From assembly GCA_944325665.1 (NCBI GenBank), contig CALVAY010000005.1, forward strand, positions 18,702 through 82,701: DNA of 64,000 nucleotides. Reading direction: 5' to 3'. Under the pieces are notes generated by a model that ran no database searches, had not been told where the DNA came from, and worked only from the letters and a program-made list of their open reading frames with translations. This document shows, one piece after another, positions 5,434-62,124 of the stretch. The DNA is from Candidatus Gastranaerophilales bacterium. Its GTDB lineage: Bacteria > Cyanobacteriota > Vampirovibrionia > Gastranaerophilales > Gastranaerophilaceae. Within the stretch, counting starts at the first letter, position 1. Each line of letters starts with the position of its first letter. Made by a program: the position numbers and the translations under genes.

Positions 5434-5509
5434 GCCCCCATCGTCTAGAGGCCTAGGACAACACCCTTTCACGGTGTAGACAGGGATTCGAATTCCCTTG
5501 GGGGTACCA
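5434..5509 (+). tRNA. tRNA-Glu (anticodon UUC), CCA encoded
   Basis: Cloverleaf read by eye. Acceptor stem is GCCCCCA/TGGGGGT. The anticodon arm is ACACC-CTTTCAC-GGTGT. The T arm is AGGGA-TTCGAAT-TCCCT. It ends with discriminator A plus CCA. Confidence 0.9.
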
Positions 5510-5822
5510 AATAAAACTAATTAGCGGCATATAGCCGCTTTTTTAATGGGAATTCGAATCCTAAGTAAATTCTTACGTTCCCTCACACAAGGTTCGTGAA
5601 GTTCCCATGTGTGTACCAAATAAAACTAATTAGCGGCATATAGCCGCTTTTTTAATGTGAATTCGAATCCTAAGTAAATTCTTACGTTCCCTCACACAAG
5701 GTTCGTGAAGTTCCCATGGGGGTACCAAATAAAACTAATCAGCGGCACATAGCCGCTTTTTTAATGGGAATTCGAATCCTAAGTAAATTCTTACGTTCCC
5801 TCACACAAGGTTCGTGAAGTTC
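5506..5822 (+). repeat. Tandem repeat, 109-bp unit x 2.9, derived from the tRNA-Glu 3' end plus its terminator
   Basis: Units start at 5506, 5615 and 5724. Each carries the terminator hairpin AGCGGC-atata-GCCGCT+T6. A roughly 74-nt segment follows with a TTCGAAT T-loop-like box, ending ..TTCCCATGGGGGTACCA (the tRNA ends TTCCCTTGGGGGTACCA). Confidence 0.9.
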
Positions 5823-5836
5823 TTATCAGAGTATAA

Positions 5837-6508
5837 TTAGATATTAGTAGTATTTTCTAATATACACTTAATCGCATCAATATCTTTTTGATAATTATAT
5901 CCCTTTTGTCTGTTTTTAAGTATTTTTCTTTGTTTTTTACAGTTTTTATACAATTTATTGCAGCCGCACCAGCATCTTTCATACCCTTTCTTTTGTTTTT
6001 CAATGCTTTCTTGCAAAGTGTTTAAAAAATTGTAAACAGCTTTTATATCTGCTAAGTCATACTTTTCCATATAATACTTTGCAATCCCCATTGCACCATG
6101 TTCTGCTTCGCCAAACGGCCAAACTTTATGTTTTTCAAAGTATGAATTTTGCGCTAAATACCCTATCAATAACTTATTTACATAATCAATAAGTCTGTAA
6201 TTAGGTGCAAGAACCCTTGCTATTTCAATAGGACGGCCCACACAAAGTGTTCCGTCCTCGTTAATATGTTCATTTTCGTCTTTTTTTATACGGTTTTCAA
6301 TTTCAAAAGCTACTATCATTTCTTTTGGGTAATCTTTTGGAATTAAAAGTCTTATTGCGTATTGGTCTTCAATTTTTTCGTTTAAAATTACCGTTGAAAA
6401 GCCGATGTATCCTTCAATTATGTCATATTCGCCGTAACTTTTATGCACTAAATAAGGATGTTCTTTTCTCAGATATTTAAATTCAACTTCTATATCAAAA
6501 GACTTCAT
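5837..6508 (-). CDS. Stand-alone E2 (ubiquitin-conjugating-like) protein of a CBASS operon, with a C-terminal SEC-C-like Cys motif
   Basis: 223 aa. HINEDGTLCVG resembles the UBC active-site signature H-x-N-x3-G-x-x-C. The C-terminus has CWCGCNKLYKNCKK. A strong RBS (GGAGGAATAATG) precedes the start. It overlaps the CD-NTase gene by 14 nt. Confidence 0.6.
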   Translation of the reverse strand: MKSFDIEVEFKYLRKEHPYLVHKSYGEYDIIEGYIGFSTVILNEKIEDQYAIRLLIPKDYPKEMIVAFEIENRIKKDENEHINEDGTLCVGRPIEIARVLAPNYRLIDYVNKLLIGYLAQNSYFEKHKVWPFGEAEHGAMGIAKYYMEKYDLADIKAVYNFLNTLQESIEKQKKGYERCWCGCNKLYKNCKKQRKILKNRQKGYNYQKDIDAIKCILENTTNI

Positions 6509-7628
6509 TATTCCTCCAAGGTTTAATCGGGTCGCTCATTTCAATTTTTTTCTTGGGTGCAATAATAACTCTGTCTTGATATTTAATTTTATTTATCTTA
6601 TATGCCGTTTCAAGAGTTTCTGAAATATTTACGCCTTCTTTTAGCAGTTCTTCAAAAAGATTATTTAACGATTTAAGCCAAGAAAAGAAAACCTGAGCCT
6701 TTCTTGGTGTTTCTTGCCATTTGTCGGCAAAGTTTTCTTCTTTTATTGTAGGGTTTTCAACAAAATAAACCCCGTTTTTTGTTTCTATATAGTTGTGCAT
6801 ATTGGCACAAATATTTTTTAGAGCATCAAATAAGTTGTCTTCCCCATTGTATGCTTTGGTTGCAAGAGTAGTTATGATAATTGAAATTGGTTTGTCATCA
6901 TCATTGCCCCAGTTAATATCCCTGTGGTGTTTTAGCAAACTGATTGCTTTTTGCAGCACGGTTTTTCTTTTATAAAGAGGAAAATCGTCAACGGACTCAT
7001 TTGCTGCAAGCAAAGTTCTTTGGTTTTTCATCATTTTTTGACGCATTTCATTTTTAAACCAAGTAATGTACCCTTGCGGGTTACTTTTTAACCAATCATT
7101 GCTTATAATTTTGTAATCTTTGTGTTCCTTGTCGGTTATACATATAGCTTGATTTATTGAGCCTGCTAAATATTTTAGCTCATTGTAATTGTTAAGACTA
7201 ACGGGTATTGCCGGTAAAATATCCATATGAAATTTGCTGCTGTCAGCATATTTTAAAGTCCAGCATCTTCTGCCGCCGTCCTTGGGGTCAAGCAATTTGG
7301 AGTATGTTCCGTTTTCTTTTAATCTTTCGCCAATTAAATTTTTAAGTTCTTCTTGGCTAAAATCATCGCAAGTGCCTTCCAAAAGACAAACTAAATCAAC
7401 ATCATATTCACAACCGCTTTGTGGTTTTATGGCAGTACCGAACGCAAAAGAGCCTTGTGCATAAATTTTAGGATTGTATTTTTTTAATTTTGAGTTTTCT
7501 CCGGCAAGCCATTCTCCTAGCGCATCATAACTTCTTTTGGCGTCTTCATATTTGCTCTCGGGTACTGAGATGTCCGTGTAAATTTCTTGTAATTTTTTTT
7601 CTATGTTTACTACATTTTCCCTAATCAT
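6495..7628 (-). CDS. cGAS/DncV-like nucleotidyltransferase (CD-NTase, SMODS family)
   Basis: 377 aa. It has the Pol-beta NTase catalytic pattern: QGSFAFGT (G-S), EYDVDLV (DxD) and a later HMDILP. The RBS GAGGAG precedes the start. It sits between the effector and E2 genes. Confidence 0.75.
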   Translation of the reverse strand: MIRENVVNIEKKLQEIYTDISVPESKYEDAKRSYDALGEWLAGENSKLKKYNPKIYAQGSFAFGTAIKPQSGCEYDVDLVCLLEGTCDDFSQEELKNLIGERLKENGTYSKLLDPKDGGRRCWTLKYADSSKFHMDILPAIPVSLNNYNELKYLAGSINQAICITDKEHKDYKIISNDWLKSNPQGYITWFKNEMRQKMMKNQRTLLAANESVDDFPLYKRKTVLQKAISLLKHHRDINWGNDDDKPISIIITTLATKAYNGEDNLFDALKNICANMHNYIETKNGVYFVENPTIKEENFADKWQETPRKAQVFFSWLKSLNNLFEELLKEGVNISETLETAYKINKIKYQDRVIIAPKKKIEMSDPIKPWRNNEVF

Positions 7629-7630
7629 TT

Positions 7631-8815
7631 TTAATTCTCCTCTTTGTTGTTTATGGTGATAGCGTGTTTGTACTCTGTGCTTTTGTCGTTTAAATTATAA
7701 ATTTTCATTGGCATATCTGCTCTTGGCAAAATTAATCTTCCGAATTCAACATTTGCACTTACGGGCATTGCAGCAAAAACATTTAAAAATGTGCCCGGTT
7801 GGTAATTATTCTTAATTTCATCAAGAACTTTTCTTACATATTCTTTAAACGCACAAAGTTGATTTTTGGCTTTAATAATATTAGGATTTGGCTCTAAGGC
7901 TGAAATTGTCCATATGTCGCAGTCTTGACCCAATACTTTCTTTATGGAGTCATGATTTATCGAACCGCTTAAAGAAAGACTTAGTGCCGGTGTTTTCCTG
8001 TAAAATGTTTTAGGTTTATCTACAATAAAATTTGCCGCATCATAGTCTTTTTGCCACTTCCAATCTTCCTCTTGTGAAACTCTGTTGGGTTGAAAAACCT
8101 CCGCCTTAATAACATCACCAATTAAATACCCTAAATAAATTAAAAGCGGTTGACAAGCCATAGCAAAAATACTTAAATGCTTAATTGTGTTATCATCCAA
8201 ATAAGGTTTAACTTTGGTTCTAAACTGATCATTTAGGTTTTTTACTTCAATGTCCCAATAAAAATTATTTTCATCATTATTATCGCTCCAAGGTGTTTCT
8301 ATATTCAGCCTGATAATATCTCCGTCAGGGTATTTTTCAGGCAAAAGAGTATTAGCTATATTTTCTTCGTTTAAATGAACAGCTCGTTTGCCTATTTTAG
8401 TAGAATATATTAAAATTTTTGATTTCTTATCGGGTTTAATGTTTGTAACAATCCTTATTCTGTCCTCGTGTTCTTTTTTCATTTTACGAAGCACATCAAC
8501 TGTATAAATATCAACCAAAGCCTTGTCTATAATGTCATGATGATGTTCCTTGCAAAGAAGCATAAGATTTGAAACATCTTTAGCTAACTTTGGCGATAGA
8601 ATTTTATCACCCCTTGGCCCATCTTCGCTTGCCGCAATAATGTGTGCAATGTTTGAAGTGTTTACTTTTGTACTGGTAAGCCCTTCTTGCCAAAGCTCTT
8701 TGTTACATCCTTTAAATTCGCATCTTCCTCCTGATTTTGACCACAGTTCAAAAACTTTGTGCTGCTCAATCTTTGCCCTTTCGGGCTTTTTCTTCTCTTT
8801 TTCATTTTTTGGCAT
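7631..8815 (-). CDS. cap5: Cap5-like CBASS effector: N-terminal HNH endonuclease plus a C-terminal SAVED-like sensor domain
   Basis: HNH region: CEFKGC..NIAHIIAASEDGPRGD..NLMLLCKEHHHDIID. The C-terminal domain of about 260 aa is of SAVED size. I prefer the ATG at 8815 (MPKNEKEKKK), preceded by GGAGGA, over the track start at 8884. The SAVED assignment rests on architecture and context, not on a motif. Confidence 0.65.
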   Translation of the reverse strand: MPKNEKEKKKPERAKIEQHKVFELWSKSGGRCEFKGCNKELWQEGLTSTKVNTSNIAHIIAASEDGPRGDKILSPKLAKDVSNLMLLCKEHHHDIIDKALVDIYTVDVLRKMKKEHEDRIRIVTNIKPDKKSKILIYSTKIGKRAVHLNEENIANTLLPEKYPDGDIIRLNIETPWSDNNDENNFYWDIEVKNLNDQFRTKVKPYLDDNTIKHLSIFAMACQPLLIYLGYLIGDVIKAEVFQPNRVSQEEDWKWQKDYDAANFIVDKPKTFYRKTPALSLSLSGSINHDSIKKVLGQDCDIWTISALEPNPNIIKAKNQLCAFKEYVRKVLDEIKNNYQPGTFLNVFAAMPVSANVEFGRLILPRADMPMKIYNLNDKSTEYKHAITINNKEEN

Positions 8816-8915
8816 AAAATATCCTCCAACTCCTGTAATTTTTTGTAAAATAGAGCCGGCATGCCTTGACAACGTGGCAAACAATAAAGTATGCTATTGG
8901 TAACGTTTTTTTTGT

Positions 8916-11635: not shown

Positions 11636-12772
11636 ATGAAAGTAAATTTCGGTGTTCCAAAAGAGCTAAAAGAAGGCGAAGCAAGGGTTGCTCTCACTCC
11701 CGATGCTGTCGGCATGCTGGTTCAAGACGGTTTATCTGTTGCAATTGAAAGCGGTGCAGGTGTTTTAAGCGGTTTTGAAGATATAGACTATGAAAAAGCC
11801 GGTGCTAAAATAATTGACTCGGCCGAAGAGCTTTGGAAAATTTCAAATATAATCGTTAAGGTTAAAGAACCTCAAAAATGCGAGTACAAGTACTTTAGAG
11901 AAGATTTGGTTATTTTTTCCTATCTTCACCTTGCAGTTGAAAAAGAGCTTACAGACGAGCTTTTAAGAAAAAAAGTTTGTGCTATACCGACTGAAGCAGT
12001 TCAAACAAAAACGGGTGAATTGCCTCTGCTTCGCCCTATGAGCGAAATTGCAGGCAGAATGAGTGTTCAATTGGGTGCAAGATTTCTGGAAAAACAAAGC
12101 GGCGGAAGAGGTCTGCTTTTAGGCGGCGTCCCCGGTGTTGAGGCTGCAAAAGTTGTTATATTAGGTGGCGGTGTAGTCGGTTCAAACGCTGCTCAAATTG
12201 CACTTGGCATGGGCGCGGATGTTTGCGTTTTGGATATTAATTCAAAAACCTTATCCCATCTTGATATGACGTTTAAAGGTCAGGTAAAAACCTGCTATTC
12301 TAACCCTGTTACAATTGCAAAGCAGCTAAAAGATGCAGATTTGCTTATAACTTCAGTGTTAATTCCTTCAACAAAAGCACCGAAGTTAGTTACGGCAGAT
12401 GTTGTAAAAACAATGAAAAAAGGTGCTGTAATTATTGATATAGCTATTGATCAAGGCGGTAACGTCGAAACAATAGATAGAGTTACAACTCTTGACAATC
12501 CGCTGTTTGAAAAATATGGTGTAATGCACTGTGCAGTGCCCAATATCCCCTCTTATGTACCGCAAACAGCTTCTTACGCTTACTCTTACGCTATATTGCC
12601 CTATATAAAATGTCTTGGCGAAAGAGGAACTTTTGTGGCACTGAAGGAAAACGACGAATTAAGCCGTGGTGTTTCAACTTTCCGCGGAAACGTTACAAAC
12701 GAAGCCTTGGCCGAGTTTTTAGGCTACGAGCACACTGAAATATCTCTTCTTGTAGGTTTTAAGGTCAAATGA
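11636..12772 (+). CDS. ald: Alanine dehydrogenase
   Basis: N-terminus GVPKELKEGEARVALTP. Rossmann motif VILGGGVVGSNAA. Confidence 0.85.
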   Translation: MKVNFGVPKELKEGEARVALTPDAVGMLVQDGLSVAIESGAGVLSGFEDIDYEKAGAKIIDSAEELWKISNIIVKVKEPQKCEYKYFREDLVIFSYLHLAVEKELTDELLRKKVCAIPTEAVQTKTGELPLLRPMSEIAGRMSVQLGARFLEKQSGGRGLLLGGVPGVEAAKVVILGGGVVGSNAAQIALGMGADVCVLDINSKTLSHLDMTFKGQVKTCYSNPVTIAKQLKDADLLITSVLIPSTKAPKLVTADVVKTMKKGAVIIDIAIDQGGNVETIDRVTTLDNPLFEKYGVMHCAVPNIPSYVPQTASYAYSYAILPYIKCLGERGTFVALKENDELSRGVSTFRGNVTNEALAEFLGYEHTEISLLVGFKVK

Positions 12773-13878
12773 TAAAAGACGCAAAAAGAATAGTTTTTAA
12801 ATTTGGAACAAATATTTTAAGAAATGACAATGGCGAAATTTCCCTTAGCCGCTTATATTCTTTCATTGAGGACATTGCAAATTTAAGAAAACAAGGAAAA
12901 GAAGTTTTAATTGTAACCTCTGGCGCAGTCGGCTTAGGTGCAAAAAAATTAAACGTTGATACAAGCCAAAGTACGGTTTTAAAACAAGCTGCGGCATCTG
13001 TCGGACAGCAAATTTTAATGTCAATTTGGCAGGACGGCTTTGCAAAATATTCTGTTAGCGTGGCACAAATTCTTCTTGTAGAAGAAGATTTTGCCAACAG
13101 AAAAAAATATTTGAGCCTGAGAAATACTCTATCTAAGCTTTTAGAGCTTGGAATTATACCTATTATCAACCAAAATGACGCCGTTTCGCCTTCCGAATTA
13201 GAGCATGTTTGTTTTTCGGACAATGACAAGCTTTCATCTCTTGTTGCATCAAAGCTTGACGCTGACCTTTTGGTTATGGTTTCAGACATTGACGGTCTTT
13301 ACGATAAAAACCCGAAAGAACACGCTGACGCAAAGAAAATTGATGTTGTTGAAAAAGTTACTCCAAAAATTGAAAAATTGGCGTCAGGTGCTTCAGCAGG
13401 CGGCAGAGGGGGCATGGTAACAAAACTTATGGCGGCAAAAGTTGTTACGTCCTCGGGTCTTTATGCCTTGATAGTGAACGGTAAAAAGCCGAATATTTTA
13501 TCTAAAATTTTCAAAGAAAAAAATGTGGGTACAATTTTTATGCCCACAAAAAACCTTTCGCACAAAAAACGCTGGATTGCTTATGCAACAAACATCATGG
13601 GCGAAATTACGGTTAACTCGGGCGCAAAAACTGCTCTTGTTGATAAGCAAAAATCACTTCTTGCAGTTGGTATTACAGAGGTGAAGGGCAACTTTAAGGC
13701 AGGGGATATCGTAAGCATTTTTGATGAGGACGGCCTGGAATTTGCCCGCGCAATGGTAAATTATAATTCTGACGAGTGCCGAAAAATTAAAGGCGCTCAC
13801 AGCGATGAAATTGAAAAAATCTTAGGTTATAAGCTTGATGATGATGTTATCATCAAAGATAATTTAGTTATTTTATAG
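12769..13878 (+). CDS. proB: Glutamate 5-kinase (with PUA domain)
   Basis: Amino-acid kinase fold (IVFKFGTN, VTSGAVGLG) plus a C-terminal PUA-like domain. 4-nt overlap with ald. Confidence 0.9.
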   Translation: MIKDAKRIVFKFGTNILRNDNGEISLSRLYSFIEDIANLRKQGKEVLIVTSGAVGLGAKKLNVDTSQSTVLKQAAASVGQQILMSIWQDGFAKYSVSVAQILLVEEDFANRKKYLSLRNTLSKLLELGIIPIINQNDAVSPSELEHVCFSDNDKLSSLVASKLDADLLVMVSDIDGLYDKNPKEHADAKKIDVVEKVTPKIEKLASGASAGGRGGMVTKLMAAKVVTSSGLYALIVNGKKPNILSKIFKEKNVGTIFMPTKNLSHKKRWIAYATNIMGEITVNSGAKTALVDKQKSLLAVGITEVKGNFKAGDIVSIFDEDGLEFARAMVNYNSDECRKIKGAHSDEIEKILGYKLDDDVIIKDNLVIL

Positions 13879-13886
13879 GGAAAATT

Positions 13887-15134
13887 ATGAATACAAAAGA
13901 ACTTGCAAAATCGGCAAAAGAGGCCTCGCTTGCACTTTTAGGGGCAGATAGCGAACTAAAAAACACAGCTTTAGAGGCTATAAGAAAAAATATCGAAGAG
14001 AAAAAAGAAGAAATTTTTGAAGCAAACAAACAAGATTTACAAGAGGCTAAAAGCCTTGTGGATAGCGGAGAAATAAGTTCTTCTACTTATGCAAGATTAA
14101 AGCTTGACGAAAATAAAATGAGAGATATGCTCAAGGGAATTCAAGATGTAATAAGCCTTGAAGACCCCGCCAACAAGGTACTTTGGACAAAAGAACTTGA
14201 CGAGGGCTTAATTTTAAAGAAAATTACCTGTCCAATCGGCGTTATTGGGGTAATTTTTGAAGCACGTCCTGACGTTATTTCTCAAATTGCTTCTCTTGCA
14301 ATCAAATCAGGTAATGCAGTAATTTTAAAAGGCGGTAAAGAATCTAACCATACAAACGCTAAAATTGCTCAAATTATCAATGATGCGCTTTCAAGCGTTC
14401 AAAATTTCCCGAAAAACGTTATAAATTTAGTGTTTTCAAGGGACGATATTAAAGAGCTTTTGAATTTGGATGAATATATTGACCTTATTATTCCAAGGGG
14501 TTCAAATAAGCTTGTAAAATATATCCAAGAAAACACGAAAATCCCTGTTTTAGGGCATGCTTCGGGCATTTGTCATATTTTTGTGGATGAGAGTGCAAAG
14601 CCAAATTTGGTAAATGATGTGTGTGTTGACGCAAAAATTCAATACCCTTCCGCTTGTAACGCTGTTGAGACGATTTTGGTGCATAAAAATTATAAAGAAT
14701 TAGACTCACTAAAAGAGGCTTTGGTTAATTCAGGCGTTAAGATAGTTGAAAATCCCGACACTTTTTCAAAAGAATATGGTGATAAAATCGTATCCCTAAA
14801 GGTTGTAGATAGCCTTGAAGAGGCAATTTTGCACATAAATAAATTCGGCTCGGGTCATACGGATTCAATTTTAACAGAGGATAAAAATAATGCCGAAAAA
14901 TTTATGAATTATGTTGACTCGGCAGGCGTTTATCACAATACTTCCACAAGGTTTTCGGACGGTTTCAGATACGGTTTCGGTGCTGAAGTCGGCATTTCAA
15001 CAAACAAAACTCACGCAAGAGGCCCTGTGGGCTTAGACGGACTTACAATCTATAAATACAAGCTTTTTGGGCAATATCAAACCGTTGCACCTTATGCAAA
15101 CGGCGAAAAAACTTTTAAACATAAGTTTGTATAA
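13887..15134 (+). CDS. proA: Gamma-glutamyl phosphate reductase
   Basis: 415-aa aldehyde dehydrogenase-type sequence (IIPRGS, GHTDSILTED), immediately downstream of proB. Confidence 0.9.
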   Translation: MNTKELAKSAKEASLALLGADSELKNTALEAIRKNIEEKKEEIFEANKQDLQEAKSLVDSGEISSSTYARLKLDENKMRDMLKGIQDVISLEDPANKVLWTKELDEGLILKKITCPIGVIGVIFEARPDVISQIASLAIKSGNAVILKGGKESNHTNAKIAQIINDALSSVQNFPKNVINLVFSRDDIKELLNLDEYIDLIIPRGSNKLVKYIQENTKIPVLGHASGICHIFVDESAKPNLVNDVCVDAKIQYPSACNAVETILVHKNYKELDSLKEALVNSGVKIVENPDTFSKEYGDKIVSLKVVDSLEEAILHINKFGSGHTDSILTEDKNNAEKFMNYVDSAGVYHNTSTRFSDGFRYGFGAEVGISTNKTHARGPVGLDGLTIYKYKLFGQYQTVAPYANGEKTFKHKFV

Positions 15135-15187
15135 TTTTTTTTTGGTATAATAAAACAATCACAACCATAAAAAGGCAAATTTGCCCT

Positions 15188-16096
15188 ATGCATGAGATTA
15201 TAGAGAAAATAAATAAACTTAAAAAAGAGAAAAAAGCTGTCATTTTGGCACATTGCTATCAAAATGTTGAGATAGATAACGTTGCCGACTATGTCGGTGA
15301 TTCTTTGGGCTTGTCAAGAATTGCCGCAAAAACCGACGCTGAAATAATCGTTTTTGCAGGGGTATATTTTATGGCAGAAACGGCAAAAATATTGTCCCCC
15401 AATAAAAAAGTTCTTTTGCCTAATATGAACTCAGGCTGCCAAATGGCGCAGATGATTGACGCAAAACGCATGAAGGAATTTAAGGAAAAACACCCGAATA
15501 TTCCTGTTGTTTGTTATGTTAATTCTACCGCAGAAGTTAAAGCTCAAGCCGATGTTTGCTGCACAAGCTCAAATGCTGTTGATATAGTTCGCTCGCTCGG
15601 CGTTAAAAAAGTTTTATTTGCGCCTGATTGCTATTTAGGCTCTTGGGTTGCAAAAAAATTGCCAGACGTAGAAGTCATATCCTACAACGGTTTTTGCCCG
15701 ACTCACTTAAGACTTTTGCCCGATGATGTCAAAAAAATGAGAATTTTATATCCTAACGCTGCAACTTTAATGCACCCTGAGTGTCATCAGGAAGTCGTTA
15801 AATTGGCAGACTTTGTCGGCTCAACCACAGAGATTATGCAGTATTGCGAAAAAAGCAAAAAAGACACTTTCTTAATAGGTACTGAAAAGGGCGTTGTAGA
15901 TAGGCTTTCAAGAGATTTCCCCGAAAAGAAATTTATTCTTATTTCAGAAAAATTGACTTGCCATAATATGAAATACAACACCCTTGAAGATATTTTGCAT
16001 GTCTTAGAAACGGGTGAAAACGAAGTTTTCGTAGAAGAAAACCTCAGAAAGCTTGCCTTTGGCGCAATTGAAAGAATGGTTGCTCTTAAGGTCTAG
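15188..16096 (+). CDS. nadA: Quinolinate synthase
   Basis: 302 aa with VILAHCYQ, the YFMAETAKIL pattern and conserved Cys residues. Confidence 0.9.
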   Translation: MHEIIEKINKLKKEKKAVILAHCYQNVEIDNVADYVGDSLGLSRIAAKTDAEIIVFAGVYFMAETAKILSPNKKVLLPNMNSGCQMAQMIDAKRMKEFKEKHPNIPVVCYVNSTAEVKAQADVCCTSSNAVDIVRSLGVKKVLFAPDCYLGSWVAKKLPDVEVISYNGFCPTHLRLLPDDVKKMRILYPNAATLMHPECHQEVVKLADFVGSTTEIMQYCEKSKKDTFLIGTEKGVVDRLSRDFPEKKFILISEKLTCHNMKYNTLEDILHVLETGENEVFVEENLRKLAFGAIERMVALKV

Positions 16097-34391: not shown

Positions 34392-34421
34392 TTTTTGGGT
34401 AATTGTTGCAGGGGATAGTGC

Positions 34422-34548
34422 ATTCGAGCTTCGCTCGGGCACGGTTTGTGCTCTGTGCCAAGCTCTTCGCTTGCCACATTCGCACTTCACACACCAAAGG
34501 CTCGCTCGCTCTCAAGCAGTGCAGTCGCACTAGCTTTCGAGCTTCGCT
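34422..34548 (+). repeat. 127-bp repeat, copy 1
   Basis: Differs from the copy at 34645-34771 by 5 transitions. Confidence 0.9.
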
Positions 34549-34644
34549 TAGTCCAGTGTCGCATAAGCCCACCACCTCATCGGTGCTGTGCATATGCTCA
34601 CATCCTTAAGGCTCGCTCGCTCTCATTGGACGCGTCGCGTCGCA

Positions 34645-34771
34645 ATTCGAGCTTCGCTCGGGTACGGTTCGTGCTTTGTGCCAAGCTCCCCGCTTGCCAC
34701 ATTCGCACTTCACACACCAAAGGCTCGCTCGCTCTCAAGCAGTGCAGTCGCACTAGCTTTCGAGCTTCGCT
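34645..34771 (+). repeat. 127-bp repeat, copy 2
   Basis: Offset of 223 nt from copy 1, which is not a multiple of 3. Confidence 0.9.
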
Positions 34772-34952
34772 CGACTTCGTATTCCGTAGTGCAAGGGTCT
34801 TGCTCAACGCAAGCCCCTATCGCACCGACTTCGTTCTCCGTAGTGCTCCATTCCGCCGGCTCAACGCCGCCGTCATTGGGAGCACCGACTTCGTATTCCG
34901 TAGTGCACGGGTCTTGCTCAACGCAAGCCCCTATCGCACCGACTTCGTATTT
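34772..34952 (+). repeat. Second tandem array (units 54/60/54 nt plus a partial), each starting CGACTTCGT
   Basis: Units start at 34772, 34826, 34886 and 34940. Units 1 and 3 are near-identical. Unit 2 keeps the flanks and the TCAAC loop but has a different stem. Confidence 0.85.
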
Positions 34953-35016
34953 AACCTCGGAAAATACATTAGTTTTTTCTCAAAAACCTATATTACAATC
35001 GCAAATGTAATATGTA

Positions 35017-35265
35017 ATGAGGTTTATCAAAATGTTTAAAATCGATTTAGCTAGAGGACAGTTTTTAATGCGTGTGATTAAATTGCAATTTCACAAAAAA
35101 ATTTATTCAATAAACATTAAAAAGCTTAACTCTGTTCTTGAAAAAATTGGCGCACACAAATTTTTTGATGAAAAAAGTCAAGACATAAAGGACTTTTTAT
35201 TCGGTCAAAAACTGCTCTACACCGAGTTTTTAGAATTTATAAGCGATGAAGTTACATCTTCTTAG
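35017..35265 (+). CDS. Hypothetical small protein (doubtful)
   Basis: ORF only. Overlaps the kdsA 3' end. Confidence 0.2.
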   Translation: MRFIKMFKIDLARGQFLMRVIKLQFHKKIYSINIKKLNSVLEKIGAHKFFDEKSQDIKDFLFGQKLLYTEFLEFISDEVTSS

Positions 35266-36070
35266 TAAGTTCAAACAAATCTTTTAAATTCTTGAATAAT
35301 TTGTGGGCATCATCAAGTGCAATCATGTTGTCCCCGTCGCATTTAGCACACTCGGGGCATGGGTGAATTTCAAAGAATAAAGCTCTTGCCCCTGCTGCAA
35401 CGGCACTTTTGGCGAGCATCGGGACAAATTTTCTCTCGCCTGATGATGACGAGCCGTGTCCGCCCGGCAGTTGCACACTGTGAGTTGCATCAAATACAAC
35501 AGGGTAGCCCAACTCTTGAATTATAGGGATTGAGCGCATATCTACAACTAAGTTATTGTAGCCAAAACTTGTACCTCTTTCGGTGATTAAAATCTTATCA
35601 TTGCCGCTGTCTATAACTTTTTTAGCGGCAGAGCCGATTTGATAAGGGGACAAAAACTGTCCTTTTTTAATGTTCACAATTTTTCCTGTTTTTGCTGCCG
35701 CAACAAGCATATCGGTTTGACGGCACAAAAAAGCGGGGATTTGCAAAACATCAGCCACGTCTGCAACTTCTGACGCTTGGCTTGGCTCGTGAAAATCGGT
35801 TACAACAGGCACATTAAATTCTTTTTTAACTTTGTCCAAAAGCTCAAGTCCGACTTTTAGCCCCGGGCCTCGATAAGAATTGATTGATGAGCGGTTTGCC
35901 TTGTCAAAGCTTGCTTTGAATACGTAGTTAATATTAAGCTCGGCGCAAATTTTCTTTAGAGTTTTTGCACACTCAAAAAGCATTTCTTCGTTTTCAATTA
36001 CGCAAGGGCCTGCAAAAATTGTAAGTTTGTTGCCGCCTATTTCAAAATTGTTAAGTTTTACAGTTTTCAT
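35252..36070 (-). CDS. kdsA: 3-deoxy-8-phosphooctulonate (KDO-8-P) synthase
   Basis: 272 aa with FKASFDKANRSS and DATHSVQLPGG motifs. Confidence 0.9.
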   Translation of the reverse strand: MKTVKLNNFEIGGNKLTIFAGPCVIENEEMLFECAKTLKKICAELNINYVFKASFDKANRSSINSYRGPGLKVGLELLDKVKKEFNVPVVTDFHEPSQASEVADVADVLQIPAFLCRQTDMLVAAAKTGKIVNIKKGQFLSPYQIGSAAKKVIDSGNDKILITERGTSFGYNNLVVDMRSIPIIQELGYPVVFDATHSVQLPGGHGSSSSGERKFVPMLAKSAVAAGARALFFEIHPCPECAKCDGDNMIALDDAHKLFKNLKDLFELTKKM

Positions 36071-36122: not shown

Positions 36123-37190
36123 ATGGCTGAAACTAAAGAAAAAGAATTGGATGAAATAAAGGCAGGGAAAGACAAAGCGCTTAAACTTGCATTAGATAAA
36201 ATTGAAAAAGATTTCGGAAAAGGTTCAATCATGCGCCTTGGCGACAGGGCAACTTTGAATGTGGAATATATTCCGACAGGTGCCCTAGCACTTGATATTG
36301 CTCTTGGCATAGGTGGTGTACCAAAAGGCAGAGTTATTGAAATTTACGGGCCTGAATCAAGCGGTAAAACAACTTTGGCACAGCATATTGTTGCAGAGGC
36401 TCAGAAAAAAGGCGGTATAGCAGCGTTTATAGATGCAGAGCATGCTCTTGACCCTGAATATGCAAGAAATTTAGGTGTTAATGTGGATGAGCTTTTAATA
36501 TCTCAGCCTGATACAGGTGAACAGGCTCTGGAAATTGCCGAAGAACTCGTGCGCTCGGGTGCGATTGACGTTATTGTCATCGACTCTGTTGCGGCTCTTG
36601 TACCTAAGGCAGAAATTGAAAAGGCGATGGATGAGCAGCAAATGGGTCTGCAAGCTCGTCTTATGTCAAAGGCTTTGAGGAAATTAACGGGTATTGTAGG
36701 TAAAACTAATACAACAGTAATTTTCATCAACCAATTAAGACAAAAAATCGGCATAATGTTTGGTAACCCTGAAACAACAACAGGCGGTAATGCCCTTAAA
36801 TATTATGCTTCAGTAAGACTTGACATAAGAAGAATTGATTCGGTTAAAAATAAAGAAGGTGAAGACATCGGTAACAGAGTTAAAGTTAAAGTTGTTAAAA
36901 ACAAAGTTGCTCCGCCGTTTAGAGTTGCCGAATTTGATATAATTTACGGAAAAGGTATTTGTGCAATCGGAAATATCTTAGATGTTGCCGTTAATATGGA
37001 TATTGTTAAAAAAGCAGGTGCTTGGTTTAGCTACAACGATGAGAAATTGGGTCAAGGCAGAGATAAATCGAAAGAATTTTTGGAAGCTAATCCCGATGTT
37101 TTAGCTGAAATTGAAACAAAAGTAAGAGAAAAGCTTGCAGCAGCTAAAAAGGCAAACCAAAAAACAGATGAGGACAAAAAGGAAGAATAG
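36123..37190 (+). CDS. recA: Recombinase RecA
   Basis: [10 protein letters not shown] Walker [11 protein letters not shown] and [14 protein letters not shown]. Confidence 0.95.
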
Positions 37191-41808: not shown

Positions 41809-42070
41809 AAAGCCACGCCCTGCCTATCGTCGCCTAAAATACAAAAATCCGACTAAAATACCTCCAATTCAAAGTTTCACACCCGTTAACTTCAACTTAG
41901 TGCTGCTATGTTTCCATCCTGACACGGTTCGCTGCATAATCGCCGCAAAACTTTGTATCATCAACAATATTTTAGTTTTCAATTTGCACCCTAAACGCCT
42001 CATAGCAGGCTTTGCACCCGACATAAGCTTTCGGTCGAGGGCTTGCAACACCCCGTGAAGCGTGGCTCTA
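41809..42070 (-). ncRNA. ffs: Signal recognition particle RNA, long (Alu-domain-containing) form
   Basis: The minus-strand sequence GAACCGUGUCAGGAUGGAAACAUAGCAGCACUAAGU matches the universally conserved SRP domain IV. Compare B. subtilis GAACCAUGUCAGGUCCGGAAGGAAGCAGCAUUAAGU, including the GNRA loop. The terminal helix pairs AGCCACG (41811-41817) with CGTGGCT (42061-42067), followed by a U-tract. Confidence 0.85.
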
Positions 42071-60516: not shown

Positions 60517-62124
60517 CTACATCTCAAGTTCAAGTTTCATATCTATATTTGTTACTCTTACAAGGAGTTTGACGTTATCAATTTTAACAATAAAGAAAGT
60601 TTTCGTTTCTTGTTTTTCGGAGATTCTGTATTTTATCGTGTAGTCTGAAACATATTCTCTGAAGTGATATAAGAAAAATATTTCATTGCCGATAAAGCCA
60701 AACAAAGCCCTTTTGCCGTCTTGATCAATTACGCTAAAGCCTCTATTAGGTGCAATTTCGGCAGTTGAGAGAATTTCCGGTTCAACGTACGGCTCTTCTA
60801 TAATTTCTTCTTTATATTCTTCTTTTTTAGGTAAAACTTCTTCTTCATCTTGGGCTAACGCTGCAAATTCTTGGGCAAAGTTTTCCGTTTCTTCCTTGAT
60901 TTCTTCTTGCTCGAAAATATCTTCTTGAGATCTTTGCGAATTGTTTTTAAGTTCTTCAAGTTCAGATTTTAGCCTGTCTTGTCTTAGGTATCTGCCGGCA
61001 TTTTTAAGTCTTTGTTTTTTGCTTTTCCCGCTTATTGCCATAAGCATCAAAATGCCTATTATAGCGACAAGAGAGGCGCAAAACAGTATAAAGTTTTCGC
61101 GAATTACTTTGTAATAGGGCAAAATAGTGTTGATTATTTCGCTTAGCTGTTCTTCATCGCTTAACTTGTCTATGTCTTCTATTCTTTCAGGCTCATAGGT
61201 AATAGGGCCGTCGTCTTTGTAATTGTAGTCCGTGTTTCCGCTGGGGTCAATTTCATAGGCAGTAACGTCTATGCCTTGAGTTTTTTGCGGCTCTTGAGTT
61301 TGGTTTTTAAGTTCTTCTTCAGCCTTTTTTTGTGCTTCTAATTGCGCAAGTCTTTGAGCTTCAAGCTCTCTTTGCTTTTGCGCTTCTAATTGAGCCAACC
61401 TTTGTGCTTCAAGTTCTTTTTGCTTTTGAGCAAGTCTTTGTGCCTCTTCTTGAGCTTTTCTTTGAGCTTCAATTTGAGCGAGCCTTTGAGCTTCAAGCCT
61501 TTTTGCCTCTTGGGCTTTTCTTTGCGCTTCAAGTTGAGCTTTTTTCTTTGCTTCAGCCTGCGCTAAAAGCCTTGCTTGAGCTTCTTTTTCCTGCTGTTCT
61601 TTAAGTTTTTGTGCCCTTAGCTGCTCTTCTTTTATTTTTTGCTCTTGTCTTTGTTTGGCTAAAAGTGCTTCTTGATTTGATTGCCTGTTAATACTTCCGT
61701 CAATTTGAGCAAGTTTTTTAGTGTCAATAACAGGTGCGACCGCTCTTTGGCTTGTATTTAGCTGAGCTGTTATATTAACGGGTTTTGCTGTGTTAATTGT
61801 AATTTTCGTATAACCGTTGTTTAAATCTTGCCCTGCGTAAGGGAAAAGTTTAACCTCAACGTTTTTTATATCTCCCGTAGGGCTAACCGAGGGTACGGAG
61901 TGAAAAGTTTCGGGAAGGAGCAGATAGTAGCTCGTATTGGATTTTTTAATAACTTTAATCGGCTCTTGGTAAGGTTTTTGGGTATAGAGCTTAATATTGT
62001 AACTGTCAGTGCCTACCTTTGCGAAATCAACCTTTAACAAGCTGTTTTTAAAATCGCTTTCAATAGCTACACTGGAGGTTGCAAAGCACAATATCCCCGC
62101 TATAACCAAAAGAAATTTCTTCAT
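60517..62124 (-). CDS. Secreted/membrane protein with an AMIN-like N-domain, a long AQRLAQLEAQK-type coiled coil, a TM helix and a C-terminal domain
   Basis: Has a signal peptide. LLKVDFAKVGTDSYNIKLYTQ...YYLLLPET resembles an AMIN domain. Lies upstream of the pilin-like gene. Confidence 0.45.
   Translation of the reverse strand: MKKFLLVIAGILCFATSSVAIESDFKNSLLKVDFAKVGTDSYNIKLYTQKPYQEPIKVIKKSNTSYYLLLPETFHSVPSVSPTGDIKNVEVKLFPYAGQDLNNGYTKITINTAKPVNITAQLNTSQRAVAPVIDTKKLAQIDGSINRQSNQEALLAKQRQEQKIKEEQLRAQKLKEQQEKEAQARLLAQAEAKKKAQLEAQRKAQEAKRLEAQRLAQIEAQRKAQEEAQRLAQKQKELEAQRLAQLEAQKQRELEAQRLAQLEAQKKAEEELKNQTQEPQKTQGIDVTAYEIDPSGNTDYNYKDDGPITYEPERIEDIDKLSDEEQLSEIINTILPYYKVIRENFILFCASLVAIIGILMLMAISGKSKKQRLKNAGRYLRQDRLKSELEELKNNSQRSQEDIFEQEEIKEETENFAQEFAALAQDEEEVLPKKEEYKEEIIEEPYVEPEILSTAEIAPNRGFSVIDQDGKRALFGFIGNEIFFLYHFREYVSDYTIKYRISEKQETKTFFIVKIDNVKLLVRVTNIDMKLELEM

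Follow-up and report, generated by a model that had tools for sequence, protein, structure and literature searches.

What kind of element fills the GC-rich interval that follows fliR in this stretch of DNA? The stretch, 64 kb of contig CALVAY010000005.1 from a Candidatus Gastranaerophilales bacterium, is referred to here as the window, and all coordinates are those of the whole stretch. The element is a repeat array at 34423-34948, in which a sequence-only reading had seen a candidate structured RNA. We consider that the locus is best explained, with a probability of roughly 0.55, as a lineage-specific, non-coding mosaic of hairpin repeats, in which a stack of hairpins acts in cis in a shared 3' region. 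As judged from the sequences compared, the array is a recombinationally unstable mosaic and not a conserved RNA of fixed architecture: the comparison of strains showed that its units reassort, duplicate and are deleted at short boxes, and that its hairpins keep their structure while their sequence changes. By analogy, the array resembles intergenic mosaic repeats (STAR, NIME) more nearly than a conserved RNA gene.

The array is set apart from its surroundings by its composition. It contains 58% GC compared with 36% for the window; in 200-nt steps the GC fraction is 0.55-0.585 across 34400-34900 and 0.27-0.41 in the flanks, which bears out the GC-rich island of approximately 550 bp described in the sequence-only reading, and with a peak of 0.61 in 150 nt the array is the strongest GC island of the window. 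Its plus strand is 60% pyrimidine, with a GC skew of -0.20. The gene order runs from the end of fliR (34391) through the array and a small open reading frame (ORF), ORF77, to kdsA (35252-36070, minus strand) and recA. The array is non-coding, as had been proposed. Plus-strand frames of 197 and 140 aa are open over it, and gene callers set ORFs of 132-210 aa on some haplotypes; in five haplotypes no ORF was called, however, none is common to all, and the array ORFs had no Pfam match. In addition, the X-type units of the array are 110, 112 and 113 nt long, which are not multiples of 3, and thus the frame is not kept. A coding interpretation was rejected on these grounds.

The array is built from three conserved boxes, J (TTCGAGCTTCGCT), B (AAGGCTCGCTCGCTCTCA) and yb (CGACTTCGTWYTCCGTAGTGC), and from hairpins of the types X, H and Y, and between its leader (Ld) and trailer (Tr) the modules in the window read Ld, J X1 B H1, J X2 B H2, J X1' B H1, J, yb-Y1, yb-Y2, yb-Y1', CGACTTCGT, Tr. 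Each of the boxes contains or resembles CTTCG/CGCT motifs, and CTTCG stands at every unit boundary. On the plus strand, the first J box (34423-34435), whose minus strand reads AGCGAAGCTCGAA and contains the mini-hairpin motif GCGAAGC, is followed by the 61-nt X1 segment (34436-34496; core hairpin TGTG-c-CAAGC-TCTTC-GCTTG-c-CACA), the first B box (34497-34514) and the H1 hairpin (34515-34535; AGCAGTGC-AGTC-GCACTaGCT). The second round, on the same strand, comprises a J box (34536-34548), the 59-nt X2 segment (34549-34607) with the long imperfect hairpin GCATA.GC.CA.CACC-TCATC-GGTG.TG.GC.TATGC, a B box (34608-34625) and the H2 hairpin (34626-34645; TTGGACGC-GTC-GCGTCgCAA). The third, again on the plus strand, consists of a J box (34646-34658), the X1' segment (34659-34719), which differs from X1 by 5 transitions and has the loop TCCCC, a B box (34720-34737) and a second copy of H1 (34738-34758).

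Behind the fourth J box (34759-34771, plus strand) lie the Y units, all of them likewise on the plus strand. The first (34772-34825, 54 nt) has the yb box CGACTTCGTATTCCGTAGTGC and then the Y1 hairpin GGGtCTTGC-TCAAC-GCAAGcCCC within GTGC/GCAC; the second (34826-34885, 60 nt) has a yb box and the Y2 hairpin GTGCTCC...CGcCGGC-TCAAC-GCCGcCG...GGGAGCAC; and the third (34886-34939, 54 nt) is a Y1' variant. A terminal half-box, CGACTTCGT (34940-34948, plus strand), forms the 3' edge of the array.

Most of the repeats listed in the sequence-only reading were recovered at the positions given there. The 127-nt repeat lies at 34422-34548 and 34645-34771, with an offset of 223 nt, 96% identity and five differences that are all transitions. 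TTCGAGCTTCGCT begins at 34423, 34536, 34646 and 34759, and the second repeat family, beginning CGACTTCGTNNTCCGTAGTGC, at 34772, 34826 and 34886, with the truncated form CGACTTCGT at 34940. For AAGGCTCGCTCGCTCTCA, the positions 34497 and 34608 were correct, and the third copy, which had been placed at 34719, begins at 34720. None of 100 shuffled sequences reproduced the boxes or yielded three matches to box B, and the box patterns are thus beyond chance.

The six X and Y hairpins follow one plan, with a TCNNC loop, a C-G closing pair, 4-5 bp, a 1x1 pyrimidine-pyrimidine mismatch and 2-5 further pairs. H1 and H2 follow another, with 5 bp, a one-base bulge and 3 bp, as had been described, and 6/8 of their pairs differ on both sides; the earlier description of the TCAAC-loop hairpins in the 54- and 60-nt units also agrees with what we found. 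Over the ten distinct X/Y variants collected from all strains, 86% of cells are paired, compared with 61% in shuffles and 26-40% when the partner is slid, and changes on both sides occurred in 8/10 pairs, a result matched by 0/500 shuffles. The covariation claimed in the sequence-only reading was thus upheld. A covariance model of the X/Y hairpins also recognized an AT-rich copy in the strain variant L003 on which it had not been trained (AAATG-t-CAAAC-TCATC-GTTTG-c-CATTT), which follows the same plan, and it gave nothing above chance elsewhere in the window. Hairpins with a GC stem and a TCNNC loop number six in the window, all of them inside the array and in one orientation, compared with 0 in 133 kb of loci from sister species. 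As a whole, the array is more stable in folding than shuffled sequences, whichever strand is taken (RNA z = -4.2 plus, -6.5 minus).

Among all copies, 20/187 unpaired and 7/136 stem positions are variable, and several of the stem cases are effects of module junctions rather than true substitutions. The census of single-nucleotide polymorphisms (SNPs) recorded no substitution in the apical stems of X1 (15 copies), X2, H1, H2 and Y2; the changes are confined to the loop NN, the bulged base and the site of the mismatch. This distribution suggests selection on pairing, although the sample is small, and the pairing of the hairpins appears constrained.

The evidence for instability came from approximately 15 independent metagenome assemblies, chosen as contigs that encode exactly the same FliR, ORF77 or KdsA, in which at least nine module arrangements were found. 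The spacer between fliR and ORF77 measures 245, 356, 361, 362, 417, 473, 640, 844 or 892 nt, while the flanking genes differ by 0-13/780 nt and 0-13/1039 nt (at most about 1.7%). The window haplotype, Ld-J-X1-B-H1-J-X2-B-H2-J-X1'-B-H1-J-yb-Y1-yb-Y2-yb-Y1-Tr, compares with Ld-J-X1-B-H2-J-X1-B-H1-J-Tr in L001 and Ld-J-X1-B-H2-J-yb-Y1-yb-Y2-Tr in L006 and L008. At one extreme stands L068, with a single hairpin unit (Ld-J-yb-Y2-Tr), and at the other arrays of more than 15 modules; L003, L004 and L010+L066 have extra modules, Z0, Z1 and X3, at the fliR-proximal end, and the Y units number 0-3 per haplotype and occur in either order. Depending on the strain, the B box after X1 leads to H1 or to H2, and J is followed by X1, X2, yb or Tr, indicating that the boxes are the crossover points. 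These X1-B-H2 junctions did not arise from k-mer collapse, as box B is only 18 nt long. Haplotypes also recurred in independent samples (window and L002, L006 and L008, L001 and L007, the last two differing by point mismatches only), and box B of L005 shows CGCT slippage. In L003 the right flank is identical and fliR has six differences, and therefore a recombination breakpoint lies in or near the array. The fixed architecture that a discrete structured RNA would have, as the sequence-only reading supposed, is not what these strains show, since module number and order vary between near-identical strains and, as described below, the array is absent from sister clades.

Two further observations concern the margins of these haplotypes. 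At about 160-250 of the L068 spacer, 47 nt of the trailer (ATTTAACCTCGGAAAATACATTAGTTTTTTCTCAAAAACCTATATTAC, present twice) are directly duplicated, which is either instability reaching slightly beyond the GC-rich array or an assembly artefact. The Z0 module, present in some strains only (L003/L004/L010, 6790-6900), has a long AT-rich inverted repeat (CTGTTTTCTTTCTTTTT ... AAAAAGAAAGAAAATGAAC) directly after fliR that could be a terminator; in Rfam, Z0 gave chance miRNA-like matches only.

The surroundings of the array were compared with those in sister clades. The FliR of the window clusters at 90% with that of Candidatus Galligastranaerophilus intestinavium, with 28/259 residues different. 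In the G. intestinavium clade, which is without the array, a convergent SIS gene begins 5 nt past fliR; in a third clade, also without it, fliR and kdsA overlap by 4 nt; and in the closest KdsA relatives (clade B) the order is nadA-ORF77-kdsA, again with no array. There, a homologue of the trailer (TTTAACCTCGG...TACATTAGTTTTTT) begins 14 nt past the nadA stop (TAG + 14 nt + TTTAACCTCGG). Among close Gastranaerophilales clades, synteny breaks at the 3' end of fliR (L076 2777-2780; L040 2580-2586; L069 4049-4143). As the array is absent from the sister clades and the trailer homologue is found in clade B, the array is an insertion at a synteny breakpoint.

The 31-nt leader (TTTTTGGGTAATTGTTGCAGGGGATAGTGCA; 34392-34422, plus strand) separates the stop codon of fliR from the first box and is kept in all haplotypes. 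A remnant of the 3' end of a nadA gene may survive in its stretch GTTGCAGGGGATAG, given a weak resemblance to the nadA end in L069 (GTTGAGTGCAGGGTGTAG). In the window, proB-proA-nadA is found at 12769-16096, 18 kb upstream. The AT-rich trailer (34949-35031, plus strand) lies upstream of ORF77 and has a GAGG ribosome-binding site; it is conserved in clade B and is therefore outside the insertion. The 3' edge of the array was set at 34948/34949 because the sequence that follows is homologous to the upstream region of the sister-clade ORF77. ORF77 itself (35032-35265, plus strand; 77 aa) converges on kdsA, with an overlap of 14 nt. The sequence-only reading correctly had the array after fliR and kdsA convergent to it, but ORF77 stands between the array and kdsA. 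ORF77 matched no family in PADLOC, Pfam or NCBIfam, and a word-based protein search found no homologue beyond the species; nevertheless, a homologue (…FLF.Q..LYTEFLE.ISD…) occupies the equivalent position in the array-less clade B. ORF77 as a dedicated partner protein of the array was thus rejected.

Searches beyond these clades returned almost nothing. Among 185,579 GTDB species representatives, box B occurred in one true contig, at the same locus and broken inside the array, and 28/29 of the box B matches were rejected as chance (e.g., a Helicobacter pylori gene and GC-rich metagenome-assembled genomes (MAGs)), as were three matches of the yb pattern in JGI metagenomes, on contigs with 57-69% GC. 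Scans of IMG/VR with the yb, B, J-yb and degenerate hairpin patterns gave zero or chance matches, blastn in distant mode found no match of the array and Z modules to phages and plasmids, and neither box searches nor the covariance model revealed a second copy in the window. The array matched no Rfam family at gathering thresholds or at E<=10, and the L003 variant gave only chance hairpin matches, in an AT-rich module.

One relative of the modules was found. A viral contig with 32% GC (IMGVR_UViG_3300045988_174211, L096), seen over 1.6 kb of its 48 kb, contains a single module unit of about 150 nt at 1030-1200, between a putative small RHH-like gene, read from translation, and a tRNA-Leu(GAG). 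The unit has 29 bases identical to module Z1 (CTTTTCCGCCTGTGCAATCAAAGATTGCT), a GCTTCAC box and a Y2-like hairpin, GCCGAC-TCAAC-GTCGCCGT, in which 17/19 bases match, with one G-C to A-T compensatory change and the C-C mismatch kept. Between the SLH proteins of this contig and of the window, identity is only 26%, and the contig thus appears to come from another organism, with the reservation that the two may not be orthologous. The best relatives of the contig's SLH protein are 60-70% identical and stand in a different context. The module family is therefore not strictly confined to the fliR-kdsA locus, and it may move horizontally.

Taken as a whole, these observations are most readily accommodated by the following course of events. 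Each unit combines a short conserved box (J, B or yb) with a GC-rich imperfect hairpin, the stem of which is free in sequence provided that the pairing, the pyrimidine-pyrimidine mismatch or bulge and the TCNNC loop (GNNGA on the minus strand) are retained. The array was inserted where the sister clades have a 14-nt spacer or none, and it gains, loses and reorders units by recombination or replication slippage at the boxes. These boxes would serve as substrates for slipped-strand mispairing and for homologous or unequal recombination, in line with proposals for STAR and NIME arrays, and DNA that moves horizontally probably seeded the module family. The hairpins of the array would act as single strands, with the minus strand the likelier one, either as the sense strand of kdsA read-through RNA or as minus-strand single-stranded DNA (ssDNA). 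The stack of hairpins would shield the 3' ends of RNA or act as an insulator between the fli operon and the kdsA/ORF77 units, which converge, a role modelled on proposals for REP/BIME and spacer-STAR and different from that of a discrete RNA gene acting in trans.

Several points weigh against this interpretation. The cis-acting RNA role is purely what we infer, and as there are sister clades without a spacer and a strain with one unit (L068), any function must be dispensable or dosage-tolerant. No canonical intrinsic terminator (there is no U tract) or promoter-like site was found in or beside the array. The units that covary are paralogues within one lineage, and the covariation is nearly all Watson-Crick, so that maintenance of palindromes at the DNA level is possible. 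In some of the length variants, short-read assembly could have collapsed the 127-nt repeat: L009, with identical flanks and a loss of exactly 223 nt, is a candidate for such a collapse, and several contigs end inside the array. Finally, the claim of a single locus rests on the 64 kb and one fragmented representative MAG.

The strand that would carry the structure deserves separate consideration. The sequence-only reading placed the five substitutions between the 127-nt copies in predicted loops or in G-C to G-U changes, and concluded that only a plus-strand RNA tolerates them. The placement was correct for a small plus-strand hairpin: two substitutions fall in the apical loop, one in the loop of the hairpin GGGCAC/GTGCTC, and the remaining two change G-C to G-U in that same hairpin. 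The conclusion did not hold, as the substitutions leave the minimum free energy of the unit unaltered (-43.8 to -43.9 plus, -54.4 to -55.3 minus), and the minus-strand model takes them up with G-U pairs of its own. The core stems are almost purely Watson-Crick and therefore strand-neutral, and by both RNA and DNA parameters it is the minus strand that folds better (RNA z -6.5 minus against -4.2 plus; DNA z -9.2, -130 kcal/mol, against -4.3, -96.7 kcal/mol); the call of a plus-strand RNA is therefore not supported. Read on the minus strand, the X, Y and J-box loops have G as their first base and A as their last (GAA, GAAGA, GGGGA, GATGA, GTTGA), each J box is (T)CGAGC-GAA-GCTCG(A), with GCGAAGC inside it, and the yb boxes have ACGAAGT. 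The strands also differ in TTCG, with 16 occurrences on the plus strand and 0 on the minus strand. A few observations, such as a plus-strand T-G in the X3 and L096 hairpins, point to the plus strand. From the folding models, the single-stranded form of the hairpins is probably the minus strand. An argument from replication strands was rejected, because the GC skew of the window is only +0.03 and too weak for a leading or lagging assignment.

Of the alternatives to the cis-acting mosaic, the one that survives best, although we regard it as unlikely, is that the array is composed of clustered small ssDNA hairpin elements, mobile or targeted by a recombinase (REP/RAYT, IS200/IS605-derived PATEs or NIME dRS3-like), in which an enzyme encoded elsewhere or by a phage reads hairpin and box and swaps 50-110-nt cassettes at CTTCG boxes. 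The imperfect palindromes with a fixed mismatch or bulge in one orientation, the GTAG immediately 5' of three Y hairpins, the minus-strand ssDNA z of -9.2 and the GCGAAGC-type mini-hairpin on the minus strand of all J boxes would suit such an enzyme, as would CTTCG at all unit boundaries, the insertion exactly at a synteny breakpoint, and the 29-nt identity with a homologous hairpin beside tRNA-Leu in the viral contig of another organism. Nonetheless, the approximately 55 window ORFs and ±6 kb of flanks that were screened encode no transposase, integrase, RAYT or reverse transcriptase, there is no second copy in the window and box B has one locus among GTDB representatives, no terminal inverted repeats or target duplications besides the boxes were seen, and the external relative is single. 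Nor did the array turn out to be a fragment of a known mobile element, an outcome that the sequence-only reading had named as one that would overturn it, as judged from the missing phage and plasmid matches.

A more far-reaching version, which we consider improbable, is that the array is the footprint of an undescribed hairpin-cassette system, in which an ssDNA enzyme specific for box and hairpin, possibly phage-borne, inserts, excises and shuffles GC-rich hairpin cassettes of 50-110 nt at CTTCG boxes. If true, it would be integron- or NIME-like in miniature, with non-coding cassettes and one chromosomal landing site, and the single orientation, the G...A loops of the minus strand, GCGAAGC and the 29-nt viral identity would be signatures of the substrate of that enzyme.

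The discrete structured non-coding RNA, e.g., one whose several hairpins titrate an RNA-binding protein by means of GNNGA (GNRA-like) loops in a dose tuned by hairpin number, must likewise be viewed as doubtful. A GC-rich island within an AT-rich genome, covarying stems with conserved loops, SNPs that avoid stems, G...A loops on the minus strand and its RNA z of -6.5 would all be expected of such a molecule. However, no Rfam match appeared even at permissive thresholds, neither side has a promoter-like site and there is no terminator, few G-U pairs are available to tell the strand, and the architecture varies within the species and is absent from sister clades.

We attach a similarly low likelihood to a functionless minisatellite, arising as a by-product of a rearrangement junction, with palindromic units made and homogenized through template switching, slippage and GC-biased gene conversion, in which the hairpins would be the cause of the instability and not selected. 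The location at a synteny breakpoint, the extreme variation in copy number down to one unit, the symmetrical Watson-Crick pairing, the CGCT slippage in boxes and the narrow, species-level distribution are all compatible with it. What it leaves unexplained is that loop class, mismatch position and orientation are kept across units with unrelated stems, that there are an AT-rich copy in L003 and a copy in another organism with a compensatory change, that the strand asymmetry is strong, which is not expected from neutral processes at the duplex level, and that SNPs among strains avoid the apical stems. A degraded or repetitive coding gene, or a foreign GC-rich fragment, is very hard to credit, since the open plus-strand frames, the ORFs called in some haplotypes and the Y units of 54 and 60 nt, both multiples of 3, are countered by the X units of 110/112/113 nt, the five haplotypes without a called ORF, the lack of Pfam and of phage or plasmid BLAST matches, and JGI matches that are chance hits in GC-rich contigs.

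The array is the fastest-changing stretch of a near-clonal 12-kb region, and is therefore a candidate strain-typing marker, of the variable-number tandem repeat type, for an uncultured gut lineage. There are also practical warnings, as the array breaks short-read assemblies and gene callers set spurious ORFs of 130-210 aa on it.

Other features of the window were noted. A tRNA-Glu (5434-5509) is followed by a 109-nt tandem repeat in three copies that are 95% identical (5434-5822 in all), and in every unit the 3' end of the tRNA is repeated (TTCCCATGGGGGTACCA), together with a hairpin that resembles a terminator (GCGGCATATAGCCGC + T6) and a segment, GGGAATTCGAATCC, that is tRNA-like; from its sequence, the repeat looks like serial duplications of an att site or tRNA end at an integration hot spot. 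A CBASS-type defence pair adjoins it (5837-8884, minus strand), with a SMODS/DncV-like cyclase (6495-7628) and a SAVED-domain effector (7631-8884), beside an unannotated ORF of 223 aa (5837-6508). Tandem repeats with periods of 48, 60 and 84 (TTGAGCTTCAAG-type) occur at 61328-61543 within a minus-strand ORF of 535 aa (60517-62124) that has no Pfam match and probably encodes a repetitive coiled-coil protein. A full-length large-type bacterial signal recognition particle RNA lies at 41813-42065 on the minus strand (Rfam RF01854, 75.7 bits).

Returning to the array, we compared it with known systems. As the sequence-only reading reported, no Rfam family, CRISPR, attC site or known transposon end corresponds to it. 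A CRISPR array has identical direct repeats of 23-47 nt between unique, non-palindromic spacers, with a cas operon or leader; it was rejected because the 'spacers' recur within and between arrays and are hairpins, and no cas domain was found among the window ORFs screened. Integron attC/CALIN sites have R''(RYYYAAC) and R'(GTTRRRY) boxes that pair at the foot of every folded site, with L boxes, extrahelical bases and a neighbouring integrase. They were rejected because GCTCAAC, although consistent with RYYYAAC, is single in each unit and belongs to the hairpin loop instead of forming an inverted pair at a stem base, and no integrase was found. Type III toxin-antitoxin repeats (ToxI-like, 34-45 nt, near-identical and just ahead of a ToxN-family toxin gene) do not agree with heterogeneous units of 54-113 nt or with an ORF77 that has no family match and exists without the array. 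A CsrA-type sponge was discarded as GGA occurs in one loop variant (GGGGA) only. For a λ-type nut site (boxA/boxB), box B has CGCTCTCA and the X1 minus-strand loop is GAAGA, but the other loops and the location at an operon end do not fit, and the resemblance was judged a coincidence. The template and variable repeats of a diversity-generating retroelement were likewise rejected, as the 127-nt copies differ by C/T transitions in both directions and not specifically at adenines.

Pneumococcal BOX elements have the modular form A-B(n)-C, with variable internal modules and a stable predicted structure, and are intergenic, with more than 100 dispersed copies; they have no sequence similarity to the array, and their modules are conserved in sequence rather than covarying. 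The GC clusters of yeast mitochondria are short GC-rich palindromes in AT-rich intergenic DNA that are recombinogenic and vary between strains, but they are organellar, dispersed and of another size class, and no relationship to the array is implied. REP/BIME elements are GC-rich imperfect palindromes of 20-40 nt, polar by virtue of an internal mismatch, that form mosaics with other motifs between convergent genes; they are proposed stabilizers of mRNA 3' ends, and RAYT transposases recognize them as ssDNA hairpins. The imperfect GC-rich palindromes of the array, with their fixed mismatch, have a comparable polarity, and, whereas REP palindromes follow a conserved GTAG-type tetranucleotide, a 5' GTAG is found at the three Y hairpins only, not at X or H hairpins. 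Unlike REPs, which are dispersed in hundreds and alternate in orientation, the hairpins of the array have one orientation and no further copy in the window, and no RAYT (Y1_Tnp) was found among the window ORFs scanned. On a smaller scale, d(GCGAAGC) is an extraordinarily stable DNA mini-hairpin (PMC13037366). Mini-hairpins of this type are found where ssDNA is primed or serves as a promoter, in the phage G4 ori, ssiA and the N4 vRNAP promoters, and the J boxes of the array have the motif on their minus strand, where it may simply add stability to the hairpin.

In NIME, short boxes flank a limited set of 50-150-bp segments and the arrays vary by strain at syntenic sites; the boxes are thought to be recombination substrates, and phage integrates there (PMC1797815). 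The array similarly has boxes that flank a limited repertoire of modules, with number and length varying between strains. It differs in that the 20-bp dRS3 inverted repeat ATTCCC-N8-GGGAAT has 0 matches with 1 mismatch allowed, its boxes being direct repeats, and in that NIME are present in hundreds per genome and their RS segments are not defined by hairpins.

The closest architectural analogue, in our comparison, is the spacer-STAR of Staphylococcus aureus, in which a conserved GC-rich motif and a variable spacer with an 8-bp covarying stem-loop form tandem units of about 50-60 nt; it occurs in a low-GC genome, in intergenic regions and 3' untranslated regions (UTRs), with 0-7 copies in the vigR 3' UTR across strains, and slipped-strand mispairing has been proposed for the change in copy number (PMC3532100; bioRxiv 10.1101/2023.05.16.541063). 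The Y units of the array are alike in that they comprise, in 54 or 60 nt, a 21-nt box and a covarying hairpin, and number 0-3 according to haplotype. In contrast, the motif T(N)TGTTGNGGCCC(N), with 1 mismatch allowed, is absent from the array, with one chance match in recA at 36587; STAR has about 100 dispersed units at many loci, whereas the array family was seen at one locus per genome; and the array, from the phylum Melainabacteria, mixes at least three reassorting unit types (X 110-113 nt, Y 54/60 nt, Z) and has no sequence relationship to STAR.

A literature search turned up no intergenic repeat family of Melainabacteria, and the Gastranaerophilales literature that was found consists of microbiome and phylogeny papers. 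The behaviour of the array has clear precedents, and a new mechanism is not demonstrated. By analogy, the array works like the intergenic hairpin repeats of the STAR, NIME and REP type and belongs to none of them. It would thus be a natural case in which repeats made of a conserved box and a hairpin of free sequence arose independently of STAR, NIME and REP, and it bears on why such architectures recur, whether through selection on single-stranded structure or as a by-product of recombination.

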